In this document: piece after piece, positions 3,996 to 37,242 of the stretch
Layout of the letters: each line of letters begins with the position of its first letter
Position numbering within the stretch: the first letter of the stretch is position 1
NCBI RefSeq assembly: GCF_056712565.1
Contig: NZ_JBWXXM010000003.1
Origin: a plasmid
Reading direction: 5' to 3' (one strand)
DNA length: 64,000 bases
The notes under the pieces: generated by a model
The model's database searches: none
The model's input: the letters and a program-made list of their open reading frames with translations, nothing else
What the model was told of the DNA's origin: nothing
Position numbers and translations under genes: made by a program

Positions 3996-5105
3996 ATGAA
4001 ATTATTATTACTTACAGGTGCAACAGGATTTCTTGGTGGCGCGGTCCTGGATAAGCTGCTGGATAACTGTAATAATATAAATTTGCTACTTTTAGTACGA
4101 GCACCTACTCCACAAGCGGGACTGGAAAGAATTAAAGAAAATATGCGTAAATTTAATGTTTGTGAGGAAAGGTTGCATGCATTAACTAATGATAACATCT
4201 TGCCTGGGGATCTAAATAATCCGGAAGCCTTTCTCATGGATCCTCGTCTTGATGAAGTCACTCATGTTATAAACTGTGCGGCTATAGCTTCTTTTGGTAA
4301 TAATCCTTTTATATGGAATGTGAATGTTACAGGTACACTTGCTTTTGCAAGAAGAATGGCAAAAGTGGCAGGACTGAAACGCTTCCTTCATGTTGGTACT
4401 GCTATGTCTTGTACACCTCATACGGGGTCGCTAGTTAAGGAAGAGTCTGCTTCATCAGAAACAGGTGAACATTTAGTGGAGTATACGCATTCAAAAGCAA
4501 CAATAGAATATCTGATGCGTAAGCAGTGTCCTGATTTACCTTTGTTGGTTGCCCGACCATCAATTATTGTTGGCCACAGTCGTTTAGGGTGCTTACCTTC
4601 AACCAGTATTTTCTGGGTATTCAGAATGGGGTTAATGTTGCAAAAATTTATGTGCTCTCTGGATGATAAAATAGATGTTATCCCTGTAGATTATTGTGCT
4701 GATGCATTGCTAATGTTGCTTGAAAGCTCGTTAATTAATGGTGAGATTGTTCATATATCAGCAGGTAAAGAAAGTAGTGTGACGTTCTCTGCTATTGACG
4801 AAGCTGTAGCCCGTGCTTTGAACTGTGATCCTGTTGGAGACAGATATACTAAAGTCAGTTATGACATACTGGCAATGAGCCGTCATGATTTTAAAAATAT
4901 TTTTGGTCCCTGTAACGAACGCCTTATGTTAAAAGCCATTCGTTTATATGGAGCGTTCAGTATGCTCAATGTTTGTTTCAGTAACGACAAGCTACTGAGT
5001 ATCGGAATGCCTAAACCGCCAAAGTTTACTGATTATATTAAATACTGTATAGAAACGACAAAACACCTTTCAATTCAACAACAAATGGAAGTTGATTTTA
5101 AATAA
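3996..5105 (+). CDS. hlyF: HlyF, NAD(P)-dependent epimerase/dehydratase (SDR) family protein
   Basis: N-terminal Rossmann motif LLLTGATGFLGGAV; 369 aa; gene order ompT-hlyF-mig-14 as on ColV-type plasmids; AT-rich. Confidence 0.8.
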   Translation: MKLLLLTGATGFLGGAVLDKLLDNCNNINLLLLVRAPTPQAGLERIKENMRKFNVCEERLHALTNDNILPGDLNNPEAFLMDPRLDEVTHVINCAAIASFGNNPFIWNVNVTGTLAFARRMAKVAGLKRFLHVGTAMSCTPHTGSLVKEESASSETGEHLVEYTHSKATIEYLMRKQCPDLPLLVARPSIIVGHSRLGCLPSTSIFWVFRMGLMLQKFMCSLDDKIDVIPVDYCADALLMLLESSLINGEIVHISAGKESSVTFSAIDEAVARALNCDPVGDRYTKVSYDILAMSRHDFKNIFGPCNERLMLKAIRLYGAFSMLNVCFSNDKLLSIGMPKPPKFTDYIKYCIETTKHLSIQQQMEVDFK

Positions 5106-7499: not shown

Positions 7500-7790
7500 C
7501 GGCATACGCGCTTCCTTATATAAGCTGTGGTCAGCAGAACAGACATAACATAAGCTGGAGCATGTATATAAGCTGTAGTGAGTAAGTCATGTTTTATGAA
7601 GGGAGCAATGCCTCAGCATCAGGTTACGGGATCACTTACGTAAGGGACAGGCAGATGGCAGCTCAGCTACAGACAGCACTGCAGGAAACAGAATATAAAC
7701 TGCAGTGAGCAGACCACTCACTGCACCGGTTAATATAAGCTGTAGTCAGTAAAGGAGCGCTCTTCACTGACTACAGTTTATGTTCAGCGG
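7500..7790. repeat. RepFIB iterons (direct repeats of ~ATATAAGCTGTAGTCAG) plus terminal palindrome
   Basis: Repeated ATAAGCTGTGGTCAGC / ATATAAGCTGTAGTGAGT / ATATAAACTGCAGTGAGC / ATATAAGCTGTAGTCAGT copies; palindrome CTGTAGTCAGTAAAGGAGCGCTCTTCACTGACTACAG at ~7741-7780. Confidence 0.65.
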
Positions 7791-8761
7791 GATTTGAAGA
7801 GTTTTTCCAGGTCATCCAGCGTGATGCCCAGTTTCTCAAGCAGGGCAAGCTTCTCCGCCATCTCCGGACTGACTTTTTCCGCAGGTGAAGGTTGCAACGG
7901 ATTTTCCTTACTCTCGTCATTCGGCGCTTTTAACCGGGGACGCCGGTAGTGAATACAGAAGAATTTTGTCCGCCCCCGCTGGATCTCCGTGTAATCAAGA
8001 TATCCAATCTCGCGCAACTGCTCCATTGCCCGTCTGACCGTCTGGTTCTGGGAAAATACAGGAGACTTCAGATTGAGGCGTGCACGCAGCCGCGCCAGCG
8101 ATATCGGTGCCGGATCCCGGGGCAGGCTCTCTATAAAGGTGTAGAGTGCCTGGGCGGACTCCCGTCGCTTCAGGGCATTAATCGCCTTAAGCTGGAGAAG
8201 GACTTTTCTGTCAAACTGGTACAGTTCAAACAGGCGGGGATCGGCCTGTAACTGCACAATATCCCGCTCAGTATCGTAGTAAGCTGACTGTACCAGATGG
8301 GTGATATATTCCCGGGTGTGCTTCTCATCGGTACGGGAAAACGAAATCACGGTACCGGCAATGCGCTTCAGGGAAGGGCTGATGCGCTCACGCAGCCTGC
8401 GGGATGACTGGCTTGAAGGTATACCACACAGTTTTGCAAACTCAACAAAAGGCAGTTCAACTTTGTCACCAATCACGTTATGGCGGGCAAAGGAATGAAT
8501 GATCCCCACCCAGGTCTTGAAATCATTATCCATATCCAGGCGGGGGCCGGTGATCTCAACCTTATCGAATCCCTCAGCACGGGCCAGGGAAAGACGTGTC
8601 AGCTCTTCCGTGGCATCAGTACGTGACAGTGTATTTTTTTTACTGTTCTTCAGTGATTTAAGGGTCGGTACAAAAACGCCCAGACGCATCAGCGCCACAG
8701 GTTGTACGGTGTTGTTATTGTTTGGTGTCAGTGTCACCAGCTCACCGGAGGACTTATCCAC
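7784..8761 (-). CDS. repA: RepFIB replication initiator RepA (iteron-binding Rep)
   Basis: 325 aa; iteron arrays on both flanks; sequence recognised as RepFIB RepA; start appears to be GTG. Confidence 0.85.
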
Positions 8762-8869
8762 CTCGCCGAACAGTTTTTTGATGTTTGAATTTTCGTTTTC
8801 CAGAAAGCCTCCAGCCTGTGGACAGTAAAAGAATAAACAGAAAATCGTGTGTCAGAACTCCGCTAACTG

Positions 8870-9030
8870 ACTGAAGAAAAACCTGCAGCCTGTATTTAAC
8901 AACTGAGTCTGGCATACTGACCATAGTTTATGTCATTAACTTACTTCAGTATATGGATTACTGAATACAGCTTATCATTAGCATGTTACAGTTTATCAGT
9001 AACATGCCACAGCTTATGTGATCGTGGTCC
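8870..9030. repeat. RepFIB iterons, distal set in inverted orientation
   Basis: Repeated ACAGCTTAT / ACAGTTTATC motifs (reverse complement of ATAAGCTGT) in AT-rich region. Confidence 0.5.
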
Positions 9031-9506
9031 CGGCCCATGAGTGACAAGGTTTGCAGCGATATGGGGATCTTTAATGGATCCTTTGTTGATCATTCATGGA
9101 TCTGTTTACTGGATCGGGCCTCCGGATATGTGGATAAATCATTCCAGAAGGACAGCGCACACAACCGTTTTATGAAAGGGCTTCAGGGCGTACCTGCTCC
9201 CTGTAACTACAGATACATTGCGCTTCCTCGCCGGTTCGCGGGCTTCGCCCGGTCACCGGTCTGCGGCGAGCACTGTTTTTTCTGATGTCTGTCTTTACAG
9301 GTAATTTTTGACGGAATCTGCCGTACTTCCTGAGCGTACGGTCATATCCGAAGTACACTTCATATGTGTGTTTCAATGCCAGGGATTGTGTATACAAACT
9401 ACAGGTGTCAGCGCCAGTGATATAAGACGGTAATTCACCATTTGGATTGTCCGCTCCACCCAACATGTTGTTTCCTTAAGGTTCTCACACCAGAAAGGAC
9501 ATCAAC

Positions 9507-9863
9507 ATGCTGAGCAGAGAGGACTTTTACATGATAAAGCAAATGCGCCAGCAGGGCGCGTACATTGTCGATATTGCGGCTCAGATTGGTTGCTCTGAAC
9601 GGACGGTCAGACGCTACCTCAAATACCCTGAACCGCCAGCCAGAAAGACCCGCCACAAAATGGTTAAGCTGAAACCGTTTATGGATTACATCGACATGCG
9701 CCTGGCAGAGAATGTCTGGAATAGCGAGGTTATCTTCGCGGAGATTAAGGCAATGGGTTATACGGGCGGACGTTCCATGCTGCGTTACTACATCCAGCCC
9801 AAACGTAAAATGCGTCCGTCAAAAAGAACAAGGAGAGAGTTACCGGTTAAAAGAGAAACGTAA
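9507..9863 (+). pseudogene. istA: IS21-family transposase IstA, N-terminal fragment only
   Basis: 118 aa MLSREDFYMIKQMRQQGAYIVDIAAQIGCSERTVRRYLKYPEPP... HTH N-terminus of IstA; ORF ends far short of full-length IstA. Confidence 0.6.
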
Positions 9864-9989
9864 AGCTGGAGTGCTGACCAAAAACACAACGCCAATCAGT
9901 GATGATGAAATGGTGCAAAGCGGACAGCATCAGTAACGAAAGTATTTAGCGGGCATGAAAATGGCAAATAACGGTCAAACATCGTGGCG

Positions 9990-10510
9990 TTGACATAGTC
10001 GCAGTTTTGGTGAACGAATCACAGACAAAGATGCCATGCACCAGGCTGTTGTTCAGTATGCAGAGCGGGCCGCAGAGAAACTACGTGGGGAGCGTCAGTA
10101 TTGCCGGCAGGTGACGACATTTGTACGGACATCCCCCTGAACCCTGTTACAGCAATGCCGCTGTGGAAAAGCTTTCATTACCCACACAGGACAGCCGGGA
10201 CATTATTGCCGCCGCATGCAGAGCCTTAAACCATGTCTGGCGTGAAGGGTACCGCTATATGAAGGCAGGAGTCATGCTGGCTGATTTCACACCATCGGGT
10301 ATAGCGCAGCCGGGATTATTTGATGAAATCCAGCCCCGTAAAAACAGTGAAAAGTTAATGAAAACACTCGATGAACTGAACCAGTCGGGAAAAGGGAAAG
10401 TGTGGTTTGCGGGGCGAGGAACCGCCCCTGAATGGCAAATGAAACGGGAAATGTTGAGTCAGTGTTATACAACTAAATGGCGAGATATTCCCCTGGCCAG
10501 GCTGGGTTAG
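9990..10510 (+). pseudogene. umuC: umuC/mucB/impB-family (error-prone polymerase Pol V subunit) 3' fragment, frameshifted
   Basis: Frame 1 ...AVVQYAERAAEKLRGERQYCRQVTTFVRTSP* then shifted frame ...PTQDSRDIIAAACRALNHVWREGYRYMKAGVMLADF...WQMKREMLSQCYTTKWRDIP, matching the conserved UmuC C-terminus; 5' part missing next to IS21 remnant. Confidence 0.6.
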
Positions 10511-10689
10511 TTCAGTCATCTCCGAACATATTTTCAGCGTTTCTTCTGGTCTGGTCTTCACCGTCATTTCTCGACAGACTCTGCTCTGTAAGGGGAGTAC
10601 TGCAATCCACAGACGTATGGAGACCAGATTGTTTTTCCAGTAATTCAATCAATTTCTTTTCAACCGAAAAAGCAGGTAATGACTCCAAC

Positions 10690-11193
10690 TTATTGATAGT
10701 GTTTTATGTTCAGATAATGCCCGATGACTTTGTCATGCAGCTCCACCGATTTTGAGAACGACAGCGACTTCCGTCCCAGCCGTGCCAGGTGCTGCCTCAG
10801 ATTCAGGTTATGCCGCTCAATTCGCTGCGTATATCGCTTGCTGATTACGTGCAGCTTTCCCTTCAGGCGGGATTCATACAGCGGCCAGCCATCCGTCATC
10901 CATATCACCACGTCAAAGGGTGACAGCAGGCTCATAAGACGCCCCAGCGTCGCCATAGTGCGTTCACCGAATACGTGCGCAACAACCGTCTTCCGGAGAC
11001 TGTCATACGCGTAAAACAGCCAGCGCTGGCGCGATTTAGCCCCGACATAGCCCCACTGTTCGTCCATTTCAGCGCAGACAATCACATCACTGCCCGGCTG
11101 TATGCGCGAGGTTACCGACTGCGGCCTGAGTTTTTTAAGTGACGTAAAATCGTGTTGAGGCCAACGCCCATAATGCGGGCAGTTACCCGGCAT
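10690..11193 (-). CDS. insB: IS1 InsB
   Basis: 167 aa [64 protein letters not shown]... Confidence 0.95.
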
Positions 11194-11387
11194 CCAACGC
11201 CATTCATGGCCATATCAATGATTTTCTGGTGCGTACCGGGTTGAGAAGCGGTGTAAGTGAACTGCAGTTGCCATGTTTTACGGCAGTGAGAGCAGAGATA
11301 GCGCTGATGTCCGGCGGTGCTTTTGCCGTTACGCACCACCCCGTCAGTAGCTGAACAGGAGGGACAGCTGATAGAAACAGAAGCCAC
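11112..11387 (-). CDS. insA: IS1 InsA
   Basis: 91 aa [43 protein letters not shown]... Confidence 0.95.
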
Positions 11388-11649
11388 TGGAGCACCTCAA
11401 AAACACCATCATACACTAAATCAGTAAGTTGGCAGCATCACCGATCCCTTCATTTAGTGACTGCCCCTGGGTTTTTCATGCTCTCCTGCGTCCTAGAGAA
11501 CTTGCCAATAACCTACATTATTTTTGCTTTGCCATTACCAATCGTCCTGAACAAGTTCATTTTAAAGCCAAAGCGCTGCCCAACTTTTATCCTCAATACC
11601 ACATCGTCAGCAGGAAATAACCTAATCCCTGTGTTGGGATCTTATAATC

Positions 11650-11710
11650 GCTAATGATAATTATTTACATTTTATAGCTTCTGCTATAAAACATAGTAGT
11701 TGCTATGTTT
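11650..11710. promoter_or_regulatory. sitA promoter region with Fur-box-like and MntR-box-like palindromes
   Basis: GCTAATGATAATTATTTAC (Fur-box-like) and AAACATAGTAGTTGCTATGTTT (palindrome resembling MntR operator) directly upstream of sitA. Confidence 0.5.
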
Positions 11711-11742
11711 ATTCTAATTTTGCTCACTATAGGTACTAAATC

Positions 11743-12657
11743 ATGCTCTCAATAAAAAAAGTAACCATGCTCTTGGGGTGCCTAGTCCTCACCTGCTCGA
11801 TAGCATTTCAGGCGAGTGCAGCTGAAAAATTCAAGGTCATTACAACTTTTACCATCATCGCAGATATGGCCAAAAACGTGGCGGGAGATGCTGCAGAAGT
11901 CTCATCCATAACCAAGCCTGGTGCAGAAATTCATGAGTATCAGCCTACCCCTGGCGATATTAAACGTGCGCAGGGGGCACAACTGATTCTCGCCAATGGT
12001 ATGAATCTGGAATTGTGGTTCCAACGCTTTTACCAGCATCTCAATGGGGTTCCAGAAGTAATTGTCTCTTCGGGTGTGACGCCAGTAGGGATCACCGAAG
12101 GGCCCTATGAGGGCAAACCTAACCCCCATGCCTGGATGTCGCCAGATAATGCTCTGATTTACGTCGATAATATTCGTGATGCGTTTATAAAATACGATCC
12201 GGCAAATGCACAAACCTACCAACGTAATGCCGATACTTATAAAGCCAAGATTACCCAAACCCTTGCCCCCCTGCGTAAGCAGATTGCGGAACTCCCTGAG
12301 AATCAGCGATGGATGGTCACCAGTGAAGGGGCTTTTTCTTATCTCGCACGCGATTTGGGGCTAAAAGAGCTTTATCTGTGGCCGATTAATGCCGATCAAC
12401 AAGGAACACCGCAGCAGGTACGTAAGGTTGTTGATATAGTTAAGAAAAATCATATCCCGGCAGTCTTTAGCGAGAGTACGATTTCCGATAAACCAGCGCG
12501 TCAGGTTGCGCGTGAAACCGGCGCGCACTACGGTGGTGTGCTCTATGTCGATTCCCTGAGCACAGAAAACGGCCCGGTACCTACGTATATCGACCTTCTG
12601 AAGGTTACTACCAGTACGCTGGTACAGGGAATTAAAGCCGGAAAAAGGGAGAAATAA
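11743..12657 (+). CDS. sitA: SitA, periplasmic Mn/Fe-binding protein of ABC transporter
   Basis: 304 aa with signal peptide; first gene of four-gene sit operon with overlapping stop/start codons. Confidence 0.9.
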
Positions 12658-13484
12658 TGATGCAATCTGCAGGCATTGTCGTTAATGATGTTACTGTCAC
12701 CTGGCGTAACGGGCACACAGCACTGCGCGATGCATCCTTCACAGTACCAGGCGGATCTATTGCCGCTCTGGTTGGGGTAAACGGTTCCGGAAAATCGACG
12801 TTGTTTAAAGCGATTATGGGATTTGTGCGTCTGACCAGCGGGAAGATATCTGTTCTGGGTATTCCCACACGACAGGCGCTACAGAAAAACCTGGTTGCCT
12901 ACGTCCCTCAGTCAGAAGAGGTTGACTGGTCATTTCCTGTACTGGTGGAAGATGTGGTGATGATGGGCCGCTATGGGCATATGGGTATGTTGCGTATCGC
13001 CAAAAAGAGGGATCGTCAGATTGTCACCGATGCGCTGGAACGTGTCGATATGGTGGATTTTCGCCATCGACAAATCGGCGAGCTTTCCGGTGGACAAAAG
13101 AAACGCGTCTTTCTGGCGAGAGCGATTGCACAGCAGGGTGATGTGATCCTGCTGGATGAACCTTTTACCGGCGTTGATGTGAAAACCGAAGCGAAAATCA
13201 TCAGCCTGTTGAGGGAGTTACGCGCGGAAGGCAAAACGATGCTTGTCTCAACGCACAATCTCGGATCCGTCACGACATTTTGCGATTATACGGTCATGGT
13301 CAAAGGCACCGTCCTGGCAAGCGGGCCGACAGACACCACTTTTACAGCCGAGAACCTGGAGCTGGCTTTTAGCGGCGTACTGCGCCATGTCACACTTAAC
13401 GGCTCGGAAGAAAGCATTATTACTGACGATGAACGCCCTTTTGTGGCACATCGACCGTCAGCGGTGCAGAGGGAAGAAAGATGA
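12657..13484 (+). CDS. sitB: SitB, ABC transporter ATP-binding protein
   Basis: Walker [13 protein letters not shown] signature LSGGQKKR, Walker B ILLDEP. Confidence 0.9.
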
Positions 13485-14338
13485 ACGCGCTACTGGAACC
13501 CTTCAGCTATGAATATATGCTCAATGCGATGTGGGTCTCGGCGATGGTCGGCGGTCTCTGCGCTTTCCTGTCATGCTATCTGATGCTAAAAGGCTGGTCG
13601 CTGATTGGCGATGCGCTGTCGCACTCTATTGTCCCGGGTGTTGCGGGGGCATATATGCTGGGGCTTCCGTTTTCTCTGGGAGCCTTCTTTTCCGGCGGAC
13701 TGGCAGCGGGCAGCATGCTGTTTCTTAACCAACTCACTCGCTTAAAAGAAGATGCCATCATCGGCCTGATCTTCTCGTCCTTTTTTGGCCTGGGGCTGTT
13801 TATGGTGTCATTGAACCCGACATCCGTGAACATTCAGACCATCGTCCTGGGCAATATTCTGGCAATCGATCCGGCGGATATCCTGCAACTCACTATCATT
13901 GGCATTCTCTCGATCATCGTGCTTTTTTTCAAATGGAAAGATCTTATGGTGACCTTTTTCGACGAGAATCACGCCCGTGCTATTGGATTGCATCCGGGCA
14001 GATTAAAAATCCTCTTCTTCACCCTGCTGTCGGTTTCGACCGTTGCGGCGCTGCAAACGGTTGGTGCCTTTCTGGTGATCTGTCTGGTGGTGACTCCCGG
14101 TGCAACAGCATGGTTGTTAACCGATCGTTTTCCCCGCCTGCTCATGATTGCTGTAACTATTGGCAGTGTGACCAGTTTCCTCGGCGCGTGGGTCAGTTAC
14201 TTTCTGGACGGCGCGACAGGTGGAATCATCGTGGTGGCGCAGACACTGCTGTTTCTTTTAGCATTTGTCTTTGCGCCCACCCATGGGCTTTTGGCAAATC
14301 GTCGGCGTGCGCATAAAGCGCTGGAGGATCGCTCATGA
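13481..14338 (+). CDS. sitC: SitC, ABC transporter permease
   Basis: 285 aa polytopic membrane protein; start overlaps sitB stop. Confidence 0.9.
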
Positions 14339-15192
14339 TGGCATTATTACTGGAGCCACTGCAGTTCACCTTTATGAGTCACGCACTGCTGATTTCACTG
14401 GTAGTTTCCATACCCTGTGCGCTGCTGTCGGTCTTTCTGGTCCTGAAAAGTTGGGCACTGATGGGTGACGCGATGAGTCATGCGGTTTTTCCTGGCATCG
14501 TGCTTGCCTGGATTCTGGGGTTACCTCTGGCTACAGGGGCATTCGTCGCCGGAGTATTCTGTGCGGTGGCGACGGGATACCTGAAAGACAACAGCCGAAT
14601 CAAGCAAGATACAGTGATGGGGATTGTTTTTTCTGGCATGTTTGCCGCAGGTCTGATCTTGTATATTGCAGTCAAACCAGACGTACATCTTGATCATATT
14701 CTTTTCGGCGACATGCTCGGGATAACCATCGGCGATATAATCCAGACGGTGATTATTGCCGGACTGGTTACACTTGTTATTAGCGTAAAATGGCGGGATT
14801 TTTTGCTGTTCAGCTTTGATTATCAACAGGCGCAGGCAAGCGGTTTGCATACGAGATGGCTGCATTATGGGCTGCTGTGCATGGTCTCCCTGACCATTGT
14901 GGCGACGCTGAAAGCGGTAGGTATCATTCTCTCTATTTCTCTTCTCATTGCGCCTGGTGCCATTGCGGTACTCCTGACACAACGCTTTCATATTGCGCTC
15001 CTGCTGGCGACTGGCATATCGATATTGGTCTCAATGACTGGTGTCTGGCTGTCCTTTTTTATCGACAGCGCGCCAGCTCCGACAATTGTTGTCTTATTCG
15101 CGGTCATGTTCATCATGACGTTTACCGTTACCAGCATCAACGCACGCACAAAGGAAAATGCCGAACCACGGGATTTGTTATCATCCGATTAG
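14335..15192 (+). CDS. sitD: SitD, ABC transporter permease
   Basis: 285 aa polytopic membrane protein paralogous to SitC; start overlaps sitC stop. Confidence 0.9.
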   Translation: MMALLLEPLQFTFMSHALLISLVVSIPCALLSVFLVLKSWALMGDAMSHAVFPGIVLAWILGLPLATGAFVAGVFCAVATGYLKDNSRIKQDTVMGIVFSGMFAAGLILYIAVKPDVHLDHILFGDMLGITIGDIIQTVIIAGLVTLVISVKWRDFLLFSFDYQQAQASGLHTRWLHYGLLCMVSLTIVATLKAVGIILSISLLIAPGAIAVLLTQRFHIALLLATGISILVSMTGVWLSFFIDSAPAPTIVVLFAVMFIMTFTVTSINARTKENAEPRDLLSSD

Positions 15193-15659
15193 CAGAACAC
15201 TCGGCCAGCAACATCCGCTTATTGGCGATGCGCTTGAACGAATAATGCACAGACTTATGATTCTGATAAGTTTTGTTGCCAGAGAGTTGCTGCGGACTGG
15301 ATAGCAAGTAATGTCGATTCTCAGGGGTAGCAAACAGCGCAGTAAAATGAGGGAAGTAGTGGCAAAACATAGAGAAAATTGGGGGGCGAGGGCCAGTGAT
15401 GTAAAAAACCACGCTAAGAGTTTAATTAATTGTTTGTATTGAAGTTTAATGATCTTAACTCACCCTTAAGAATATCTTCCGGTAACGAAGACGTATAATG
15501 CCCCAGCATATTTATATGGCTATGTATCAGCAGCGATAATCTTGCCGGATGCTACTCCTCAGGAGTTTCTCCCGATTTGCGAAGATGTGACAACGCCTCC
15601 TGCATGTAAAGTGTGTTTCACAGCACAACCGCATTGGTCACCAGCCCCAGAGCACCTAG

Positions 15660-16094
15660 TTGATCTTCCTGCCCTTAACGGTAGCTGAAGATGACTGGGC
15701 TGGATGGAAAATCCTGCATGGTGCATTGGGAGAGCAGATAGAATTGGTTGGCGACGATCTGTTTGTGACCAACGTAAAGTATATTCAGCGCGGCATTGAC
15801 GAAAACCTTGCCAATTCAGCATTGATTAAACTCAACCAGATTGGTTCCCTGAGTGAAACCTTTGATGCGGTACAACTTTGCCATGACAACAACTGGGGCA
15901 CCTTTATCTCACACCGCAGTGGTGAGACAGTGGACAGCTTTATCGCCGATATGACAGTTGCAATGCGCGCAGGTCATCTCAAAACGGGAGCTCCATGCCG
16001 GGGTGAGCGTATTGAAAAATATAACCAGCTTATGAGAATTGAGGATGAACTGGGTTCATCGGCGCAATTTGCCGGAAAGTCTGCCTTTAAATGA
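15660..16094 (+). pseudogene. eno: enolase (eno) 3' fragment
   Basis: ...[104 protein letters not shown]... matches enolase C-terminal third; N-terminal two thirds absent. Confidence 0.8.
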
Positions 16095-16144
16095 CATTAT
16101 TGTGCCAATCCCCCAGGCTTACACGTCGGGGTTATTCTGGAGGA

Positions 16145-16363
16145 ATGATGAAAGCTCACGTTTTTGTTATTTCTATGCTTACTGGCATTGTCGTCACCTA
16201 TGCCGTGTTACTTCTTGGTTGCTTGTTCATCGATAAAACGCTCCCCACTGTAGATGTTGTCATTCTGTCACTTGTCGTGGGGGCTTCTGCTCAGCAATTG
16301 TCGAGGGTATTAATGTCAATAAATAGAACCTTCCCTTATCTTGCATGTAGTCAAAGGATATAA
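16145..16363 (+). CDS. hypothetical small membrane protein (~72 aa) upstream of crcB
   Basis: MMKAHVFVISMLTGIVVTYAVLLLGCLFIDKTLPTVDVVILSLVVGASAQQL...; two predicted TM helices; start chosen inside track ORF 16091-16363. Confidence 0.3.
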   Translation: MMKAHVFVISMLTGIVVTYAVLLLGCLFIDKTLPTVDVVILSLVVGASAQQLSRVLMSINRTFPYLACSQRI

Positions 16364-16434
16364 ATTAACAATATCAGTCAAATGAGAACATATTCTGATA
16401 TTGTTACGATAAAAAATTATTTTATGAGGGGTAC

Positions 16435-16815
16435 ATGATTAAATCACTTTTTGCCGTCATTATCGGCGGTTCTGTTGGATGTACTCTGCGCTGGTTACTG
16501 TCCACACGCTTTAACAGTCTTTTTCCAAATCTACCTCCAGGTACACTGGTGGTGAACCTCCTTGCCGGGTTAATTATTGGTACTGCGTTGGCGTACTTTT
16601 TACGACAACCACACCTTGATCCTTTTTGGAAATTAATGATAACAACGGGACTTTGTGGAGGTCTGAGTACTTTCTCTACATTTTCTGTTGAAGTATTCGC
16701 ATTACTCCAGGCGGGAAATTATATATGGGCTTTGACGTCTGTACTTGTTCACGTCATTGGCTCCCTCATCATGACAGCTTTAGGCTTTTTTATCATAACC
16801 ATACTTTTCGCATGA
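16435..16815 (+). CDS. crcB: CrcB/FluC fluoride channel family protein
   Basis: 126 aa, four TM segments, motifs GGxxGxxxR and GxCGGLSTFSTFS characteristic of CrcB/Fluc. Confidence 0.85.
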   Translation: MIKSLFAVIIGGSVGCTLRWLLSTRFNSLFPNLPPGTLVVNLLAGLIIGTALAYFLRQPHLDPFWKLMITTGLCGGLSTFSTFSVEVFALLQAGNYIWALTSVLVHVIGSLIMTALGFFIITILFA

Positions 16816-16877
16816 GAATTCATTAACGTTACAGGTTTATCAACTAATGTGACGCTTAGGATAGAATTTCGCTCCAT

Positions 16878-16938
16878 GGTATGCGTTTGCAGTCATTACA
16901 GTCTCCATGACGACTGTAATGACTGCAAACGCATTACC
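16878..16938. repeat. long near-perfect inverted repeat (~26-bp arms, 7-nt spacer)
   Basis: GGTATGCGTTTGCAGTCATTACAGTC-TCCATGA-CGACTGTAATGACTGCAAACGCATTACC downstream of crcB. Confidence 0.7.
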
Positions 16939-17194
16939 TGACATATCAGTATAAACAATGAATTAACCTCTTGGCGTATTTTTTACATCACTGGCCCTCA
17001 CCCCCCAAAATTCTCTCTGAAAAATTGTTGCGGTTAACGTTGCCAATGTATCCACCCATTTCAGAAGACGATCTGGCATCCTGGTGGCATGCTGCGATGT
17101 GCTTCAGGTGAGTGCACTGGGCGGTCAGCACAGGCGGTTTCGACAGCGAAATTGCACAGGACGTTATGCCGGCTGTGAGTACAACATCATAGCC

Positions 17195-18388
17195 TTACTT
17201 GATTGTACGGTAATGCCAAATACATGCAGACACTATGGTAAATAATACAGCGGCAAATAATGCCGTCACAATCAGCGCGATTGAGACACCTGTTTTCGAC
17301 GCCAGTGGCACCAACAATGCGCACAGCCCATAGCCAAGTGTGTGACTGGCCGCAAGCCAGCCCGCGCCTGCGCCGTCGGCCAGCTTATCATTCAGTAAAA
17401 GTTGATAAGCGGGTGTTGCCAGAGCGGCCCCAAATGACAGCACTGCACAGCCCAGGTAAAACAACCATAGCTGTTCAGTGAGCATGATAGCCAGACCACT
17501 ACTCATCAACACCCCGGCACTCAGGAGCAGAGCCACTGGAGTCAGGCGCTGTGGACGGAGTACCACGAACTGCGCGATAAGCGCAGCTATTGCGGACAGC
17601 CCCAACAACCACGCCACCTGTTGGCTAATAGTGGTGGTATCAGTATCGAACTGGCGAGTAAGGGCTGGCGAAAGTCCAAGCTGCATCATGCTCATTGCCG
17701 CAGCCAGTAACATTGCGCAAAGCAGATAAGGCAGGCAATCCCGCTTCAGGCTGACGCTCTTGCGCTCCGGTGTGGGCTGTGGTGGTGTGCCGGGCAACCG
17801 CAGAAGCATCACCACAGCCCACACCGGAGCTGCCATCAGCATCCACACTGGCGCCAGAGGGTGAATGACCAACATTGCCGCCGCGCACAGCGGCCCGAAT
17901 AGCCTGCCGCAGCTCAGGCCGGAGCTGATGGTTGCCAGAGCGGCCATGCGATTCCCTTCTCCCGCTCTCTGCAATGCCCAGACCTGACAGGCTGGCACCA
18001 TTGCTGACACGGTCAGACCGTAGACGATCCGGGCGATGATTAATATTCCCAACCCCACCGCTGTTGTTACGGCACCGGTAGCCATCAGCACGCTTCCCAG
18101 CCCAAGCAGGGTAAAGCTTACGCCATATCCTCCCAGAGCCCACAGCACCACAGTCTTACTGCCAGTAAGGGAAATTTGCTTTCCCCACCATGGGGAAGAT
18201 GGCAGAAACAGCATTGAGCCCAGCATCAGCAGGGCAGCCCATACAGACAGACTCAGATTTGTCTGTATGACCAGAACAGGGAGTACAACCAGCAGACCGT
18301 TCTGTCCGATACCGAGAAGACCGGCACTGAACGCCAGTGGCCAGCAGGACAGGGTTTTTTGGGGCGTATCTTCGATCTTAGATGACAT
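17195..18388 (-). CDS. shiF: ShiF-like MFS transporter, divergent from aerobactin operon
   Basis: 397 aa polytopic membrane protein immediately upstream of and divergent from iucA. Confidence 0.75.
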   Translation of the reverse strand: MSSKIEDTPQKTLSCWPLAFSAGLLGIGQNGLLVVLPVLVIQTNLSLSVWAALLMLGSMLFLPSSPWWGKQISLTGSKTVVLWALGGYGVSFTLLGLGSVLMATGAVTTAVGLGILIIARIVYGLTVSAMVPACQVWALQRAGEGNRMAALATISSGLSCGRLFGPLCAAAMLVIHPLAPVWMLMAAPVWAVVMLLRLPGTPPQPTPERKSVSLKRDCLPYLLCAMLLAAAMSMMQLGLSPALTRQFDTDTTTISQQVAWLLGLSAIAALIAQFVVLRPQRLTPVALLLSAGVLMSSGLAIMLTEQLWLFYLGCAVLSFGAALATPAYQLLLNDKLADGAGAGWLAASHTLGYGLCALLVPLASKTGVSIALIVTALFAAVLFTIVSACIWHYRTIK

Positions 18389-18459
18389 TGTAATGTTTCA
18401 ACACCATGTATTAATTGTGTTTATTTGTAAAATTAATTTTTCTGACAATAACATTTCTC

Positions 18460-18500
18460 ATTGATAATGAGAATCATTATTGACATAATTGTTATTATTT
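18460..18500. promoter_or_regulatory. aerobactin (iucA) promoter with Fur boxes
   Basis: CATTGATAATGAGAATCATTATTGACATAATTGTTATTATTTTAC matches Fur consensus GATAATGATAATCATTATC; just upstream of iucA RBS AGGAG. Confidence 0.85.
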
Positions 18501-18523
18501 TACTGTGTAGGAGCTGTTTGATT

Positions 18524-20248
18524 ATGATCCTGCCCTCTGAAAAATCCGCCACAGATGTGGCTGCGCAGTGCTTCCTGAATGCCTTGATTCGTGAAACCAA
18601 AGACTGGCAACTGGCGGAATACCCGCCAGACGAATTGATTATCCCGCTGGACGAACAGAAGTCGCTCCATTTCAGAGTGGCTTATTTCTCCCCAACCCAG
18701 CATCACCGCTTTGCATTTCCTGCTCATCTGGTCACGGCATCAGGCAGTTATCCTGTCGACTTTACCACTCTCTCCCGGCTTATTATTGATAAGCTCCGGC
18801 ATCAACTTTTTCTGCCAGTTCCCCTCTGCGAAACTTTCCACCAACGCGTGCTGGAAAGCTACGCCCATACGCAACAGACAATTGATGCCCGCCATGACTG
18901 GGCCATCCTGCGTGAAAAAGCGTTGAATTTTGGCGAGGCTGAGCAGGCACTGCTGACAGGACACGCTTTCCACCCTGCACCTAAGTCTCATGAACCGTTT
19001 AACCGCCAGGAAGCTGAACGATACCTGCCTGACATGGCACCTCACTTCCCGCTGCGGTGGTTTTCGGTGGATAAAACGCAAATCGCTGGTGAAAGTCTGC
19101 ATCTTAACCTTCAACAGCGGTTGACGCGATTTGCCGCAGAAAATGCGCCCCAGTTACTCAACGAATTAAGTGACAATCAATGGCTGTTCCCGCTGCACCC
19201 GTGGCAGGGAGAATATCTTTTGCAGCAAGTGTGGTGCCAGGCACTTTTTGCTAAAGGACTTATCAGAGACTTAGGCGAGGCCGGCACGTCGTGGCTGCCG
19301 ACCACCTCTTCCCGCTCCCTCTACTGTGCTACCAGCCGCGATATGATCAAGTTCTCCCTGAGCGTTCGGCTGACCAACTCCGTCCGTACTCTGTCTGTGA
19401 AAGAGGTGGAGCGAGGAATGCGCCTGGCACGTCTGGCGCAAACCGACGGCTGGCAGATGCTACAGGCCCGCTTCCCTACTTTCCGGGTAATGCAGGAGGA
19501 CGGCTGGGCCGGGCTGCGCGATCTTAACGGCAACATCATGCAGGAAAGTTTGTTTTCCCTGCGTGAAAACCTGCTGCTGGAGCAGCCGCAAAGCCAGACC
19601 AACGTTCTGGTTTCCCTGACTCAGGCCGCACCGGATGGCGGTGATTCGCTGCTGGTTTCGGCGGTAAAACGCCTGAGCGATCGCCTCGGTATCACTGTGC
19701 AACAGGCCGCCCACGCATGGGTCGATGCTTACTGTCAGCAGGTGCTGAAGCCTCTGTTTACGGCTGAAGCGGATTACGGCCTGGTGCTGCTGGCGCATCA
19801 GCAAAATATTCTTGTGCAGATGCTTGGGGATCTGCCGGTCGGATTTATTTACCGTGACTGCCAGGGCAGCGCGTTTATGCCTCACGCGACAGAGTGGCTC
19901 GATACCATTGACGAGGCGCAGGCGGAAAATATTTTCACCCGTGAGCAGTTGCTGCGCTATTTCCCTTATTACCTGCTGGTTAACTCCACTTTTGCCGTAA
20001 CTGCTGCGCTGGGTGCTGCCGGGCTGGACAGCGAAGCGAATCTGATGGCTCGTGTACGAACATTGCTGGCTGAAGTGCGTGACCAGGTGACTCATAAAAC
20101 CTGTCTCAACTATGTTCTGGAAAGTCCGTACTGGAACGTAAAAGGTAACTTTTTCTGTTATCTGAACGATCATAACGAGAACACCATCGTTGACCCTTCG
20201 GTGATCTATTTTGATTTCGCTAACCCGCTGCAGGCTCAGGAGGTCTGA
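18524..20248 (+). CDS. iucA: IucA, aerobactin synthetase (NIS synthetase)
   Basis: Start MILPSEKSATDVAAQCFLNALIRETKDW inside track ORF 18461-20248, preceded by AGGAG; IucA/IucC family. Confidence 0.9.
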   Translation: MILPSEKSATDVAAQCFLNALIRETKDWQLAEYPPDELIIPLDEQKSLHFRVAYFSPTQHHRFAFPAHLVTASGSYPVDFTTLSRLIIDKLRHQLFLPVPLCETFHQRVLESYAHTQQTIDARHDWAILREKALNFGEAEQALLTGHAFHPAPKSHEPFNRQEAERYLPDMAPHFPLRWFSVDKTQIAGESLHLNLQQRLTRFAAENAPQLLNELSDNQWLFPLHPWQGEYLLQQVWCQALFAKGLIRDLGEAGTSWLPTTSSRSLYCATSRDMIKFSLSVRLTNSVRTLSVKEVERGMRLARLAQTDGWQMLQARFPTFRVMQEDGWAGLRDLNGNIMQESLFSLRENLLLEQPQSQTNVLVSLTQAAPDGGDSLLVSAVKRLSDRLGITVQQAAHAWVDAYCQQVLKPLFTAEADYGLVLLAHQQNILVQMLGDLPVGFIYRDCQGSAFMPHATEWLDTIDEAQAENIFTREQLLRYFPYYLLVNSTFAVTAALGAAGLDSEANLMARVRTLLAEVRDQVTHKTCLNYVLESPYWNVKGNFFCYLNDHNENTIVDPSVIYFDFANPLQAQEV

Positions 20249-22938: not shown

Positions 22939-24212
22939 AAAAAAGTGTCGATTTTATTGGTGTAGGGACAGGGCCATTTAATCTCAGCATTGCTGCGTTG
23001 TCACATCAGATCGAAGAACTGGACTGTCTCTTCTTTGATGAACATCCTCATTTTTCCTGGCATCCGGGTATGCTGGTACCGGATTGTCATATGCAGACCG
23101 TCTTTCTGAAAGATCTGGTCAGTGCTGTTGCACCTACAAATCCCTACAGTTTTGTTAACTATCTGGTGAAGCACAAAAAGTTCTATCGCTTCCTTACAAG
23201 CAGACTACGTACAGTATCCCGTGAAGAGTTTTCTGACTACCTCCGCTGGGCTGCTGAAGATATGAATAACCTGTATTTCAGTCATACCGTTGAAAACATT
23301 GATTTCGATAAAAAACGTCGATTGTTTCTGGTGCAAACCAGCCAGGGAGAATATTTTGCCCGCAATATCTGCCTTGGTACAGGAAAACAACCTTATTTAC
23401 CACCCTGTGTGAAGCATATGACACAATCCTGTTTCCATGCCAGTGAAATGAATCTTCGTCGGCCGGACCTTAGTGGAAAACGGATAACCGTGGTTGGTGG
23501 AGGACAGAGTGGTGCAGACCTGTTCCTTAATGCATTACGCGGGGAATGGGGAGAAGCGGCGGAAATAAACTGGGTCTCCCGGCGTAATAATTTTAACGCA
23601 CTGGATGAGGCTGCTTTTGCTGATGAGTATTTTACACCTGAATATATTTCAGGCTTCTCCGGACTGGAGGAAGATATTCGCCATCAGTTACTGGATGAGC
23701 AGAAAATGACATCGGATGGCATCACTGCCGATTCTTTACTGACCATTTATCGTGAGTTGTACCACCGTTTTGAAGTTCTGAGAAAACCAAGAAATATCCG
23801 TCTGCTACCCAGCCGCTCGGTAACAACTCTGGAAAGTAGTGGTCCTGGCTGGAAGTTGCTGATGGAGCATCATCTGGATCAGGGCAGGGAGAGCCTGGAA
23901 AGTGATGTGGTGATTTTCGCCACAGGTTACCGTTCTGCGTTGCCACAAATACTTCCCTCACTGATGCCCCTGATCACCATGCACGATAAGAACACCTTTA
24001 AAGTGCGTGATGACTTCACTCTGGAATGGAGTGGCCCGAAAGAGAACAACATCTTCGTGGTCAACGCCAGTATGCAAACCCATGGCATCGCCGAACCCCA
24101 GCTCAGCCTGATGGCATGGAGATCTGCACGTATTCTTAATCGCGTAATGGGACGTGATTTATTCGATCTCAGTATGCCGCCCGCCCTGATTCAGTGGCGC
24201 AGCGGCACCTAG
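22935..24212 (+). CDS. iucD: IucD, L-lysine N6-monooxygenase
   Basis: FAD-binding GxGxxN (IGVGTGPFNLS) and second dinucleotide motif VVGGGQSGAD; exact start not resolved. Confidence 0.9.
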   Translation: MKKSVDFIGVGTGPFNLSIAALSHQIEELDCLFFDEHPHFSWHPGMLVPDCHMQTVFLKDLVSAVAPTNPYSFVNYLVKHKKFYRFLTSRLRTVSREEFSDYLRWAAEDMNNLYFSHTVENIDFDKKRRLFLVQTSQGEYFARNICLGTGKQPYLPPCVKHMTQSCFHASEMNLRRPDLSGKRITVVGGGQSGADLFLNALRGEWGEAAEINWVSRRNNFNALDEAAFADEYFTPEYISGFSGLEEDIRHQLLDEQKMTSDGITADSLLTIYRELYHRFEVLRKPRNIRLLPSRSVTTLESSGPGWKLLMEHHLDQGRESLESDVVIFATGYRSALPQILPSLMPLITMHDKNTFKVRDDFTLEWSGPKENNIFVVNASMQTHGIAEPQLSLMAWRSARILNRVMGRDLFDLSMPPALIQWRSGT

Positions 24213-26632: not shown

Positions 26633-27019
26633 TGCTCATTTCCTCAAAAAATACAAGAAAAGAATTAGTATTCTAACAAAAAGTGAAATAAATTGTATCA
26701 AACTCCCTCTTTTAATCCTGTTGAGTAAATCAGCTTTTGCAATAGGATTGAAAGAGTGTAAGTGGAATCTCTTCCGGATACTCGTTACCACCGTGGCTAG
26801 AATATCTACGGCTGCGGGCCAGTAATAGATTAAGTGATAACAGCTGTCTGGAAATGTAGGGGCGTATCCACTAATCATAATCATTGTGAGATAAATATTA
26901 CGGGGCATTTTATAATGAATAAAATATACTCTCTAAAATATTGTCATATTACCAATACCATGAAGGTGATGCTGCCAACTTACTGATTTAGTGTATGATG
27001 GTGTTTTTGAGGTGCTCCA

Positions 27020-27717: not shown

Positions 27718-27727
27718 GTTGGAGTCA

Positions 27728-37163: not shown

Positions 37164-37242
37164 TGCGGCACGTTTTAGTCTACATTTATCTGTCTTTACT
37201 TAATTTCCTTTAGCACAGGCTAGAAAACATAACTAACTGGCC

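Follow-up and report, generated by a model that had tools for sequence, protein, structure and literature searches.

The conserved virulence region of ColV/ColBM plasmids (pS88, pAPEC-O1-ColBM, pAPEC-O2-ColV and relatives) has been described previously, with ORFs reported as 'putative fragment of ImpB', 'putative enolase', 'CrcB-like protein' and sitABCD; the enolase fragment (eno') was taken to code for an enzyme with a potential role in metabolism or virulence, and crcB was read as a gene of camphor resistance and plasmid condensation (PMC3438092, PMC4723317). The source of the fluoride channel Fluc-Ec2 is stated as an 'E. coli virulence plasmid' (PMC3755343). In Enterobacter cloacae FRM, the fluoride-resistance operon is arranged as riboswitch-ppaC-uspA-eno-gpmA-crcB-orf5249 (Liu et al. 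2017; PMC5533749). Among Tn3-family transposons with divergent tnpA/tnpR and passengers, the nearest to the present locus is the intact element of the Klebsiella plasmid pWP7-S18-CRE-03_1. The impCAB operon of IncI/K and F-type plasmids is a umuDC analogue with a dinI-like impC, and IS21 carries the transposase gene istA and the helper gene istB.

The DNA analysed here, a window of 64,000 nucleotides, comes from an E. coli ColV virulence plasmid of the pS88/pAPEC type, a very common kind. Its sequence is no different from the conserved ColV/ColBM region and is 99.9% identical to the complete 131-kb pS88-like ColV-Ia plasmid NZ_CP033091.2. The region is a known patchwork of broken ISs and gene fragments around an intact metal-uptake operon, sitABCD (four intact ORFs, 11743-15192). 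All boundaries and the identity of each fragment were observed directly (Table 1), as were both deletions, the inverted repeats and the lack of impA/impC. The features listed in the original prediction all exist at or near the positions given there, in agreement with profile matches, ORFs and PGAP; stbB', the Tn3-family tnpA fragment and the inverted repeats bracketing eno'-crcB had been overlooked.

Table 1. Features of the analysed region, with positions in the window.
Feature	Position	Strand	Remarks
IS21	9406-9995	+	Both termini intact (TGTCAG... / ...TTGACA); 1,540-bp internal deletion
istA'	9507-9836	+	First ~108 codons of IS21 transposase gene
'istB	9829-9936	+	Last ~35 codons of IS21 helper ATPase gene; matches full IS21 copy
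impB' (umuC homologue, plasmid impCAB operon)	9996-10510	+	Codons ~251-424 of 424, 3' 41%
stbB'	10512-10674	-	3' ~54 codons of plasmid stability gene; cut by IS1
IS1 (IS1A type)	10675-11442	-	768 bp; insA/insB intact
IS3-family debris	11445-11485		~41 bp between IS1 and sit promoter region; matches annotated IS3-family transposase DNA at 95%
sit module (promoter region and operon)	11528-15219	+	Outer homology limits to chromosomal E. coli sit loci, 96.7-97.1%
sitA	11743-12657	+	Intact ORF
sitB	12657-13484	+	Intact ORF
sitC	13481-14338	+	Intact ORF
sitD	14335-15192	+	Intact ORF
AAAATT, left direct-repeat copy	15375-15380		Abuts transposon end; candidate target-site duplication
Defective Tn3-family transposon	15381-17006		1,626 bp left; remains of fluoride-resistance operon
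Left terminal inverted repeat (GGGGGGCGAGGGCCAGTGATGTAAAAAACCACGCTAAG)	15381-15418	+	38-bp length assumed by family analogy
tnpA'	15426-15685	-	3' end of Tn3-family transposase gene; three in-frame stop codons
eno'	15684-16094	+	Codons 279-414 of fluoride-operon enolase paralogue; C-terminal ~32%
90-codon ORF (pS88016 'conserved hypothetical protein', PMC3438092)	16091-16363	+	In 340-bp eno-crcB spacer; status doubtful
crcB	16435-16815	+	Intact, 126 aa; fluoride channel Fluc-Ec2; NF010792, 175.8 bits
Hairpin	16881-16934		Perfect 23 bp, 8-nt loop; downstream of crcB, before right inverted repeat; not followed by T-run
Right terminal inverted repeat, Tn3-family	16969-17006	-	Matches left repeat
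AAAATT, right direct-repeat copy	17007-17012		Abuts transposon right end
IS debris between transposon and shiF	17052-17172		~57 bp ISEc12 istA-like (88%); ~60 bp IS2/IS3-family-like (82-83%)
shiF (MFS transporter)	17195-18388	-	Start of aerobactin module
IS1, inverted copy	26965-27732	+	100% identical to copy at 10675

The eno' fragment and crcB are what is left of a wrecked fluoride-resistance transposon rather than chromosomal DNA that came with sit; this origin differs from the published readings of both genes. The pair lies between two Tn3-family terminal inverted repeats, one of which stands between it and sitD; the repeats fall in inverted arms (15368-15408 and 16979-17019) of 41 nt that are 90% complementary. 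At its left end, the transposon aligns with the GGGG... terminus of the pWP7-S18-CRE-03_1 element, and tnpA' corresponds to residues ~914-990 of 1002, with 91% identity to the TnpA of that element. GGGG-initiated terminal repeats are shared with this group, as is the layout, in which tnpA runs outward to inward from the left end and is followed by the resolvase gene, with the cargo between tnpR and the right repeat; however, the window keeps only ~86 tnpA codons and has neither res nor tnpR. The AAAATT copies at both ends, for which base composition gives a chance estimate of roughly 3e-4 to 1e-3, are a candidate target-site duplication. Tn3-family elements normally duplicate 5 bp, whereas this repeat is 6 bp long, and the outer 13 bp on each side are partly inverted-symmetric; the repeat could therefore reflect a palindromic target or chance.

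The eno' ORF ending at 16094 matches Enolase_C at positions 158-293 of 296 (E 7.7e-59) and TIGR01060 at positions 287-422 of 425, and is thus the C-terminal third of enolase, as originally predicted; the start then proposed (15660) takes in 8 codons of antisense tnpA, and the real enolase begins at 15684-15686. The plasmid Eno is 74-78% identical to the Eno of riboswitch-ppaC-usp-eno-(gpmA)-(crcB) loci in Serratia, Edwardsiella, Pantoea, Citrobacter and a soil MAG, and the fluoride riboswitch (RF01734) lies upstream in all four of them that were scanned with Rfam (Serratia, Edwardsiella, Pantoea and the soil MAG). The ColV lineage shares about 70% DNA identity with the plasmid relatives found (Eno 75-76%, CrcB 69-72%, PpaC and Usp 45-50% at the protein level). 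The ORF in the eno-crcB spacer has no family match, and related operons are without a comparable spacer. CrcB is identical at 125 of 126 positions to PDB chains 7KKR, 5A43, 6B24 and others, and the sole difference in the aligned chain 7KKR, R25K, lies in the crystallised construct; the product is the structurally solved channel Fluc-Ec2.

The missing part of the cargo is kept in a rarer sister plasmid, pVTB074v-1, in a long form, tnpA'-tnpR'-fluoride riboswitch-ppaC-usp-eno-crcB, of which the window is a version minus 4,241 bp. The long form comprises 1.7 kb of tnpA', a C-terminal resolvase fragment (Pfam Resolvase), the riboswitch (RF01734, 43.8 bits against a gathering score of 34), a DHH/DHHA2 pyrophosphatase, Usp, eno and crcB. 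The deletion junction lies at 15684/15685 with GC microhomology; no mismatches separate the two sequences over 15193-15685, and right of the junction there are 3 in 3,317 bp. The sit region of pVTB074v-1 differs from the window by 1.4%, so the plasmid as a whole is not the direct ancestor. In PLSDB, the long form occurs in 16-18 records, as against about 970 for the short form. The long-form tnpR fragment is only 57% identical to tnpR of the pWP7-S18-CRE-03_1 element, against 91% for tnpA, and the transposon may thus be a hybrid. With the E. cloacae FRM operon, the long form shares the order of riboswitch, family II pyrophosphatase, Usp, enolase paralogue and CrcB, and the logic of combining an exporter with spare copies of fluoride-sensitive enzymes; transposases flank the FRM operon too. 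In contrast, the ColV lineage is without gpmA, of which the spacer holds no trace, and the window retains only eno codons 279-414 and crcB, the riboswitch being gone. A fully intact transposon with cargo was found neither in PLSDB nor in E. coli genomes, and the only match in one exact-pattern metagenome scan was the same long-form plasmid. Our literature search found no report of a fluoride operon as Tn3-family cargo and no discussion of the Fluc-Ec2 gene context as riboswitch-stripped transposon cargo.

Three other explanations can be considered. Eno'-crcB might belong to the aerobactin (shiF-iuc-iutA) island and have moved with it, the two inverted repeats being unrelated leftovers. The crcB-shiF-iuc adjacency is constant on ColV plasmids and occurs in 16 chromosomal places, and an empty site, in which the sequence downstream of sitD joins the shiF-side flank directly, was not found in PLSDB or complete E. 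coli genomes. However, the right inverted repeat and further IS debris intervene between crcB and shiF (iucA starts at about 18461-18524), the two repeats are a matching pair that encloses precisely the tnpA...crcB stretch, each with an AAAATT copy on its outer side, and the single chromosomal copy examined, within a prophage, derives from the plasmid arrangement by IS1 truncation; we regard this origin as improbable.

Still less probable is the view of the original prediction that sit arrived with chromosomal flanking DNA; an enterobacterial chromosome would then have supplied eno' and crcB, as housekeeping-type genes, along with sitABCD, and truncation would have come afterwards. Both are what they seem, the fragment a true enolase C-terminus and crcB a true CrcB gene, and many E. 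coli chromosomes do have sit; however, what 1,682 sit loci on E. coli chromosomes share with the plasmid copy is limited to window positions ~11528/11608 to 15199/15219, i.e., promoter and operon, ending 7-27 bp past the sitD stop. A transposon inverted repeat and the tnpA fragment stand between sitD and eno', and in the long form eno is preceded by a fluoride riboswitch, ppaC and usp. Moreover, identity to the chromosomally encoded counterparts of E. coli K-12 is only 53% for the plasmid Eno and likewise for CrcB, and the K-12 genes are not adjacent but far apart; the crcB predicted as chromosome-like is present and intact, yet diverges to this extent and lies inside Tn3-family repeats. This reading is thus already contradicted by the evidence. 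That the truncations and frameshift are assembly or sequencing artefacts of a single record, a general possibility with nothing further in its favour, is refuted to a negligible residue by recurrence, since about 900-1,100 sequenced plasmids contain the region at 99.9-100% identity (at least 80% of 9300-16900 is present in 916 PLSDB plasmids, and 1,019 of 5,426 complete E. coli genomes contain 15193-17200), PGAP annotates the same pseudogenes in RefSeq, and the umuC-like and eno frames recur truncated rather than full-length in hundreds of independently sequenced plasmids of E. coli, Salmonella and Klebsiella.

Left of sit, the predicted IS21 remnant proved to be IS21 itself, in which sequence matching positions 1-425 of a full IS21 copy (99.3% identity) runs directly into sequence matching positions 1965-2130 (99.4%). 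Correct termini are retained, in contrast to the interior; with positions 426-1964 missing, neither IstA nor IstB can be made. Also unlike an ordinary IS21 copy, the element is not flanked by a target-site duplication (..ACAGG on the left, TAGTC.. on the right). IS100 was ruled out as its identity (36% aa identity, no DNA match). The istA' ORF (9507-9863; NF033546, E 1.3e-16) crosses the deletion junction, and its first 108 codons are 99.3% identical to IS21 istA; PGAP lists istA' as a pseudogene, 'IS21 family transposase, missing C-terminus', and 'istB as 'AAA family ATPase, missing N-terminus'. Both istA' and the umuC-like fragment exist as predicted; however, they do not abut, as the istB 3' end and the IS21 right terminus (9830-9995) lie in between.

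The predicted umuC/mucB-family 3' fragment with an internal frameshift is borne out by UmuC model NF002955, which matches 9997-10137 at positions 250-296 (E 3.6e-23), ending '...VRTSP*', and 10121-10510 at positions 301-422 in another frame (E 3.4e-62). Compared with intact impB, 11 bp (TTGCAGTAAAA) are missing between 10138 and 10139, which accounts for the frameshift. This fragment, annotated as pS88006 'putative fragment of ImpB' (PMC3438092), contains the DUF4113 and IMS_C domains and is 97.7% identical in DNA to intact impB of pB15 (positions 4001-4526 of its segment). Since an undeleted copy aligns at only 97.7%, the 1,176 plasmids that match 9996-10674 at 99% or more must carry the deleted allele. 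In intact backbones, stbB (Pfam Plasmid_stab_B) is convergent after impB and is followed by parM; stbB' is collinear with 4528-4690 of the pB15 segment, and impB'-stbB' with its impCAB-stbB-parM (4001-4690), with the single 11-bp gap. One F-type plasmid carries impC-impA-impB::IS21-stbB-parM, which shows that the segment belongs to F-type backbones and that impB is hit by IS21 independently. In tblastn searches with ImpC, ImpA and ImpB, only ImpB residues 251-424 were found in the window and in complete NZ_CP033091.2, whose PGAP annotation lists no other Y-family polymerase or umuD. The window thus lacks impC, impA and impB codons 1-250, and the predicted loss of a functional plasmid Pol V is supported.

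IS1 follows the umuC-like fragment as predicted, with stbB' between them. With the inverted copy at 26965, it brackets the 15.5-kb sit-Tn-shiF-iuc-iutA segment; a further inverted copy (99%) lies at 33974-34746. A 9-bp target duplication was absent for IS1 at 10675, alone or paired with 26965-27732. Assembly of the mosaic by successive IS-mediated events is upheld for the IS and transposon events, with no IS copy showing a target-site duplication.

The order of events that we infer would start from an impCAB-stbBA backbone segment, intact in IncI/K and some F-type plasmids, into which IS21 inserted at impB codon ~250. Subsequently, a deletion or recombination associated with IS21 would have removed impC, impA and 5' impB, joining the IS21 left end upstream of RepFIB repA; IS21 would next have lost 1,540 bp internally, impB' its 11 bp, and IS1 would have cut stbB and removed parM. 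The sit module consists of no more than promoter and operon and lies between IS debris. A Tn3-family transposon of putative layout IR-tnpA<-res->tnpR-[fluoride riboswitch-ppaC-usp-eno-crcB]-IR would then have inserted about 190 bp downstream of sitD. A first deletion across 5' tnpA, res and 5' tnpR would have given the long form surviving in few plasmids, and a second, of 4,241 bp from inside tnpA to eno codon 279, would have taken out the riboswitch together with ppaC, usp and two-thirds of eno, leaving the short form of the window and about 97% of carriers.

In this scheme, crcB (Fluc-Ec2) would persist without its own riboswitch or promoter. No fluoride riboswitch was found in the window, and the stretch from sitD to crcB contains no predicted terminator-like site; 40 bp upstream of crcB there is a promoter-like hexamer pair, the count of such sites being that expected from shuffling. 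In pS88 qRT-PCR, induction in urine ex vivo and in vivo decreases monotonically from sitA (84x/776x) through sitD (26x/140x), eno' (8x/19x) and ORF16 (4x/10x) to crcB (4x/6x) (PMC3438092). On the basis of these qRT-PCR fold changes from another laboratory, the probable source of crcB transcripts is read-through from the iron/manganese-regulated sit promoter. Overall, the region is ordinary and largely known, and the origin of eno' and crcB is a modest new annotation point. The full decay scheme very likely holds, making this part of the pS88/pAPEC-type ColV plasmid a mobile-element graveyard in which sitABCD and crcB are the only intact cargo left.

The stretch from 9300 to 16900 recurs at 100% identity in ColV-type plasmids of E. 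coli and Salmonella, with at least 80% of it covered in 916 PLSDB records, and the 131-kb ColV-Ia plasmid NZ_CP033091.2 of E. coli ATCC 11775 matches the entire 64-kb window at 99.9% identity. The ORF map places a RepFIB repA, sitABCD, shiF, and iucA along the window (see the table). Every feature listed in the original prediction was found in the sequence with strong profile statistics, and both the IS21 transposase model and the CrcB models gave matches. The fragment forms recur in these 916 records and, for the segment 9996-10674, in 1,176 PLSDB plasmids that match at 99% or more, which marks them as real rather than artefactual. RefSeq lists an IS21 transposase, an AAA ATPase fragment, a frameshifted DUF4113 protein, and a Tn3-family transposase fragment as pseudogenes on NZ_CP033091.2, and also names IS1, sitABCD, a partial phosphopyruvate hydratase, and crcB. 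The sequence, the pseudogenes, and their names are already known from RefSeq and from the papers on pS88 (PMC3438092) and on the NMEC plasmid (PMC4723317).

Coordinates of the features in the window
Feature	Coordinates	Description
RepFIB repA	7784-8761	minus strand
IS21, left block	9406-9830	IS21 positions 1-425; 422/425 identical to a full copy (L003, 2501-4630)
IS21, right block	9830-9995	IS21 positions 1965-2130; 165/166 identical to the same copy
impB' and stbB' (3' fragments)	9996-10674	97.7% identical to pB15 (L005) 4001-4690, with a single 11-bp gap
IS1	10675-11442	inverted copies at 26965-27732 (100%) and 33974-34746 (99%)
IS3-family scrap	11445-11485	41 bp; between IS1 and the sit promoter
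Transposon relic	15381-17006	IR-tnpA'-eno'-ORF-crcB-IR (well supported)
tnpA remnant	15426-15685	minus strand; 86 codons
ORF in the eno-crcB spacer	16091-16363	90 codons; overlaps the eno stop (ATGA)
Inverted repeat	16881-16934	perfect, 23 bp, 8-nt loop; flanked by crcB and the right end of the transposon; no T-run after it
ISEc12-like and IS2-like scraps	17052-17172	right of the transposon repeat, before shiF
iucD	22935-24212	open 425-codon ORF
Tandem array	37168-37898	about 12 in-register copies, 43-bp period, 62-100% identical to the reference copy
GC-rich repeat, three dispersed copies of about 600 bp	42037-42660, 45294-45919, 50684-51310	68-96% identical; spaced by 3.26 and 5.39 kb

All four sit genes are intact, with ORFs of 304, 275, 285, and 285 aa that PGAP likewise calls intact, and SitA matches the ZnuA profile (E 9.5e-86); by its gene content (a binding protein, an ATPase, and two permeases), SitABCD is predicted to be an Mn/Fe ABC importer. 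The proposal that this locus arrived together with chromosomal eno and crcB as its flank is contradicted by the chromosomal sit loci themselves, which number 1,682 in E. coli and are 96.7-97.1% identical to the plasmid copy. Their homology is limited to the interval between window 11528-11608 and 15199-15219, so that the unit common to plasmid and chromosome is the promoter plus the operon, with nothing more than 27 bp past sitD. The flank that carries crcB and the 3' fragment of eno (eno') forms part of another mobile element, distinct from sit and of a different functional class. Nor is a chromosome-like character of the two genes supported, since the plasmid Eno and CrcB are each 53% identical to their K-12 counterparts, the genes for which lie far apart on the K-12 chromosome. 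The IS-driven mosaicism that formed the other part of the proposal is supported. A composite transposon made of the IS1 at 10675 and its inverted copy at 26965 was rejected for want of common 9-bp target duplications, and no such duplication was found around any single IS1.

The element to the right of sitD is delimited by inverted arms at 15368-15408 and 16979-17019 that are 90% complementary and that surfaced in the same alignment as the comparison of the window with plasmid pVTB074v-1 (L006). The terminal repeats themselves, with an assumed length of ~38 bp, start with GGGG, and the first 28 nt are identical at 27 positions. The left arm aligns to the GGGG-initiated end of an intact Tn3-family element in the Klebsiella plasmid pWP7-S18-CRE-03_1, which encodes a TnpA of 1,002 aa and a divergent tnpR. 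The tnpA fragment in the window corresponds to residues ~914-990 of this functional relative at 91% identity and contains three in-frame stops, which suggests that its function was lost some time ago. Neither the full TnpA of ~1000 aa nor a resolvase gene or res site is present in the window. Tn3-family target duplications are usually 5 bp long; a 6-bp repeat, AAAATT, adjoins both ends of the element and is suggestive of a target duplication, which fits at 5 bp only with one terminal base reassigned. The hypothetical empty site, i.e., 15193-15380 joined to 17013-17200, was spanned neither in PLSDB (distant mode) nor in the complete E. coli genomes. No intact copy of the transposon was found in PLSDB, and a single scan for an exact 36-mer across metagenome contigs yielded pVTB074v-1 only and no intact transposon.

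A longer version of the element is displayed by pVTB074v-1, which was matched from window 15684 rightward only and yet is annotated with a full eno. In this long form, sitD is followed by a 1.7-kb remnant of a Tn3-family tnpA on the minus strand, a resolvase remnant, a fluoride riboswitch (Rfam RF01734, 43.8 bits; gathering score, 34), the genes for a Mn-dependent pyrophosphatase (ppaC) and a universal stress protein (usp), eno, crcB, shiF, and iuc; the corresponding Pfam families are Resolvase, DHH/DHHA2, and Usp. Window 10925-15685 corresponds to L006 1-4761 and window 15684-19000 to L006 9001-12317; mismatches are absent from 15193-15685 and number three over the 3,317 bp on the right, and the deletion junction has GC microhomology. 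Relative to the long form, the window lacks 4,241 bp, a loss that comprises the remaining tnpA, the tnpR remnant, the riboswitch, ppaC, usp, and eno codons 1-278. RF01734 gave no match within 8500-18500 even at E ≤ 1, and what is left of eno (codons 279-414) is, as predicted, only a C-terminal part (Enolase_C, E 7.7e-59, profile positions 158-293 of 296); the N-terminal domain is absent and the C-terminal TIM barrel is incomplete. The long form keeps TnpA residues ~430-990 and a C-terminal resolvase fragment (Pfam Resolvase, E 2.1e-7), and the res region was not found in it. Its unit, IR-tnpA'-tnpR'-riboswitch-ppaC-usp-eno-crcB-IR, is a classic Tn3-family layout with a fluoride operon as the passenger. 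Among PLSDB records, the long form is rare (16-18) and the short form of the window common (~970).

Two further observations concern pVTB074v-1. Its eno contains an in-frame TGA at codon 11 (ATG AGC TTT GTT CTT GAG AAA ATC GTT GCC TGA GAG ATT..., L006 8131-8170), where other enolases have Arg, and PGAP starts the gene downstream at the ATT; thus, even the long-form enolase may be impaired. In the IS1-sit region, window 10925-15000 differs from L006 1-4076 by 67 substitutions (1.4%), and rightward of the sitD stop codon the two are identical or almost so, a distribution that points to probable recombination within sit between plasmid lineages.

The passenger genes belong to a recognizable operon lineage. 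The plasmid Eno is 75-76% and CrcB 69-72% identical to the products of Citrobacter and Pantoea plasmid operons of the type ppaC-usp-eno-(gpmA)-crcB. When the full plasmid Eno was searched against the GTDB species genomes, the best identities were 74-78%, found in Serratia bockelmannii, a soil MAG, Edwardsiella hoshinae, and Pantoea, and all four of these best loci have ppaC and usp upstream together with an RF01734 riboswitch; no closer, immediate donor was found in this set. The fluoride operon of E. cloacae FRM is riboswitch-induced and has transposases on its flanks (PMC5533749); the window shares with it the fluoride exporter gene crcB, but lacks the riboswitch, ppaC, usp, and a full eno. 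The 340-bp spacer between eno and crcB, as compared with only 105-155 bp or gpmA in the related operons, is mostly filled by an ORF that corresponds to the "conserved hypothetical" pS88016, has hydrophobic stretches, and gave no Pfam or NCBIfam match. The spacer shows no similarity to gpmA, and its derivation from that gene was discarded. The inverted repeat located downstream of crcB could be a terminator-like or a recombination element.

The CrcB protein of 126 aa is intact, matches Pfam CRCB (E 9e-27), and is identical at 125 of 126 positions to the PDB chains of Fluc-Ec2 (5A43, 6B24, 7KKR, and others), the source of which was given as an "E. coli virulence plasmid" (PMC3755343). By this identity, the crcB product is Fluc-Ec2, a demonstrated fluoride channel according to published activity and structure. 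The gene has lost its riboswitch and promoter in the window and is co-oriented with sitABCD, and no terminator is predicted between sitD and crcB; promoter and terminator scans gave counts not above those of shuffled sequence, and no positive promoter claim is made. Published qRT-PCR on pS88 provides fold-induction values in urine ex vivo and in vivo, respectively, of 84 and 776 for sitA, 26 and 140 for sitD, 8 and 19 for eno' (ORF17), 4 and 10 for ORF16, and 4 and 6 for crcB (PMC3438092). This monotonic fall from sitA to crcB is the pattern expected from read-through, and we infer that crcB is probably transcribed from the sit promoter in this way, which offers a simpler reading of the "urine-induced putative enolase" of that study. 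Deletion of the riboswitch, ppaC, usp, and most of eno would thereby have led to the capture of crcB by the sit promoter. That ColV plasmids carry the relic of an unnamed Tn3-family fluoride-resistance transposon is well supported. The complete proposal, in which crcB is in addition governed by read-through from the iron/manganese-responsive sit promoter and is kept for fluoride tolerance in iron-poor fluids such as urine, is tentative and rather unlikely to hold in all its parts.

To the left of sit, a search with 9380-10000 returned two blocks, both of which are IS21 proper. Aligned to full IS21, the left terminus (TGTCAGCGCC...) lies at 9406 and the right terminus (...GGCGTTGACA) at 9995, and the terminal inverted repeats beginning with TGT are kept; the 1,540 bp missing between them comprise most of istA and istB, of which istA codons 1-108 and the last ~35 istB codons are left, and neither gene is intact. 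The istA fragment had been described as abutting the umuC fragment; both fragments exist, and their direct contact is refuted by the istB tail and the IS21 right terminus that lie between them. No 4-5 bp target-site duplication was found around IS21, as the flanks (..CAGG / TAGT..) differ, and the sequences on its two sides thus did not adjoin each other at the time of insertion; a deletion, or recombination between IS21 copies, would have come afterwards. IS100 was rejected as the identity of this element, since the pPCP1 IS100 gave no DNA match and only 36% amino acid identity.

The adjoining segment is related to pB15, an IncI-gamma/K plasmid on which impC (dinI-like), impA (umuD), and impB (the umuC homologue, 424 codons) are followed by a convergent Plasmid_stab_B gene (stbB) and parM. 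The window retains impB codons ~251-424 and the last ~54 codons of stbB, which is cut by IS1 at 10675. The frameshift reported for the umuC-like piece is borne out by its two matches to the UmuC model NF002955 (E 3.6e-23 at 9997-10137 and E 3.4e-62 at 10121-10510) and stems from the deletion of 11 bp, TTGCAGTAAAA, between 10138 and 10139, which breaks the impB reading frame. Since an undeleted copy aligns at only 97.7%, each of the matches at 99% or more requires the deleted allele. The Y-family catalytic core (the N-terminal IMS domain) is missing, and residues 251-424 represent only the IMS_C tail and DUF4113. Searches by tblastn with ImpC, ImpA, ImpB, StbB, and ParM found nothing further in the window or in the complete NZ_CP033091.2, on which no umuD or other Y-family polymerase is annotated either. 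A umuD partner is thus not found elsewhere on that plasmid, and the loss of plasmid Pol V, as originally proposed, is supported.

The F-type plasmid NZ_CP085620.1 of E. coli (L097, IncFIA/FIB/FIC) carries impC-impA-impB-stbB-parM with a full-length IS21 inserted in impB (L097 4701-7303) and with impC and impA still present, an arrangement found in at least 122 PLSDB records; this shows that the segment is native to F-type backbones. Its IS21 was rejected as the ancestor of the window remnant, since it lies 273 bp further 3' than the window junction and has its own 4-bp duplication, which makes it an independent event.

The ISEc12-like, IS2-like, and IS3-family scraps, 41-60 bp long, lie at the outer edges of the sit and aerobactin modules. 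The segment 15193-17200 is present in 1,019 of 5,426 complete E. coli genomes, nearly always plasmid-borne. Chromosomal copies of crcB-shiF-iuc are few and appear secondary; the one inspected, in E. coli GTEN_23 (L095, NZ_CP113486.1 3534-18289), consists of plasmid-type crcB-shiF-iucABCD among prophage genes and begins at an IS1 by which crcB is truncated at its 5' end. This arrangement is evidence that IS1 mediated a transfer of the aerobactin module from a plasmid to the chromosome. PGAP labels iucD as "frameshifted" in NZ_CP033091.2 and pVTB074v-1; the flag probably reflects a C-terminal length difference from the reference model and not inactivation.

Both the fluoride operon type (PMC5533749) and Fluc-Ec2 (PMC3755343) are well characterized, and in the searchable literature no link was found that identifies ColV eno'/crcB as the remnant of a riboswitch-controlled fluoride operon on a Tn3-family transposon. 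The link is an annotation-level insight and no new type of system; the analysis supplies correct boundaries and names for a pseudogene block in about one-fifth of complete E. coli genomes, and its value is mostly housekeeping. Two published readings are corrected: the urine-induced "putative enolase" is a dead fragment, most likely carried by sit read-through, and the plasmid crcB, treated in the NMEC paper as a camphor-resistance and plasmid-condensation gene (PMC4723317), is a fluoride channel gene left from a fluoride-resistance operon and not a plasmid-condensation factor. Fluc-Ec2, a widely used structural model protein, thereby gains a genomic history, and fluoride operons under riboswitch control are shown to be able to reach clinical plasmids on Tn3-family transposons. 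Should the sit promoter drive crcB expression, this would constitute a small, tidy case of regulatory capture after operon decay.
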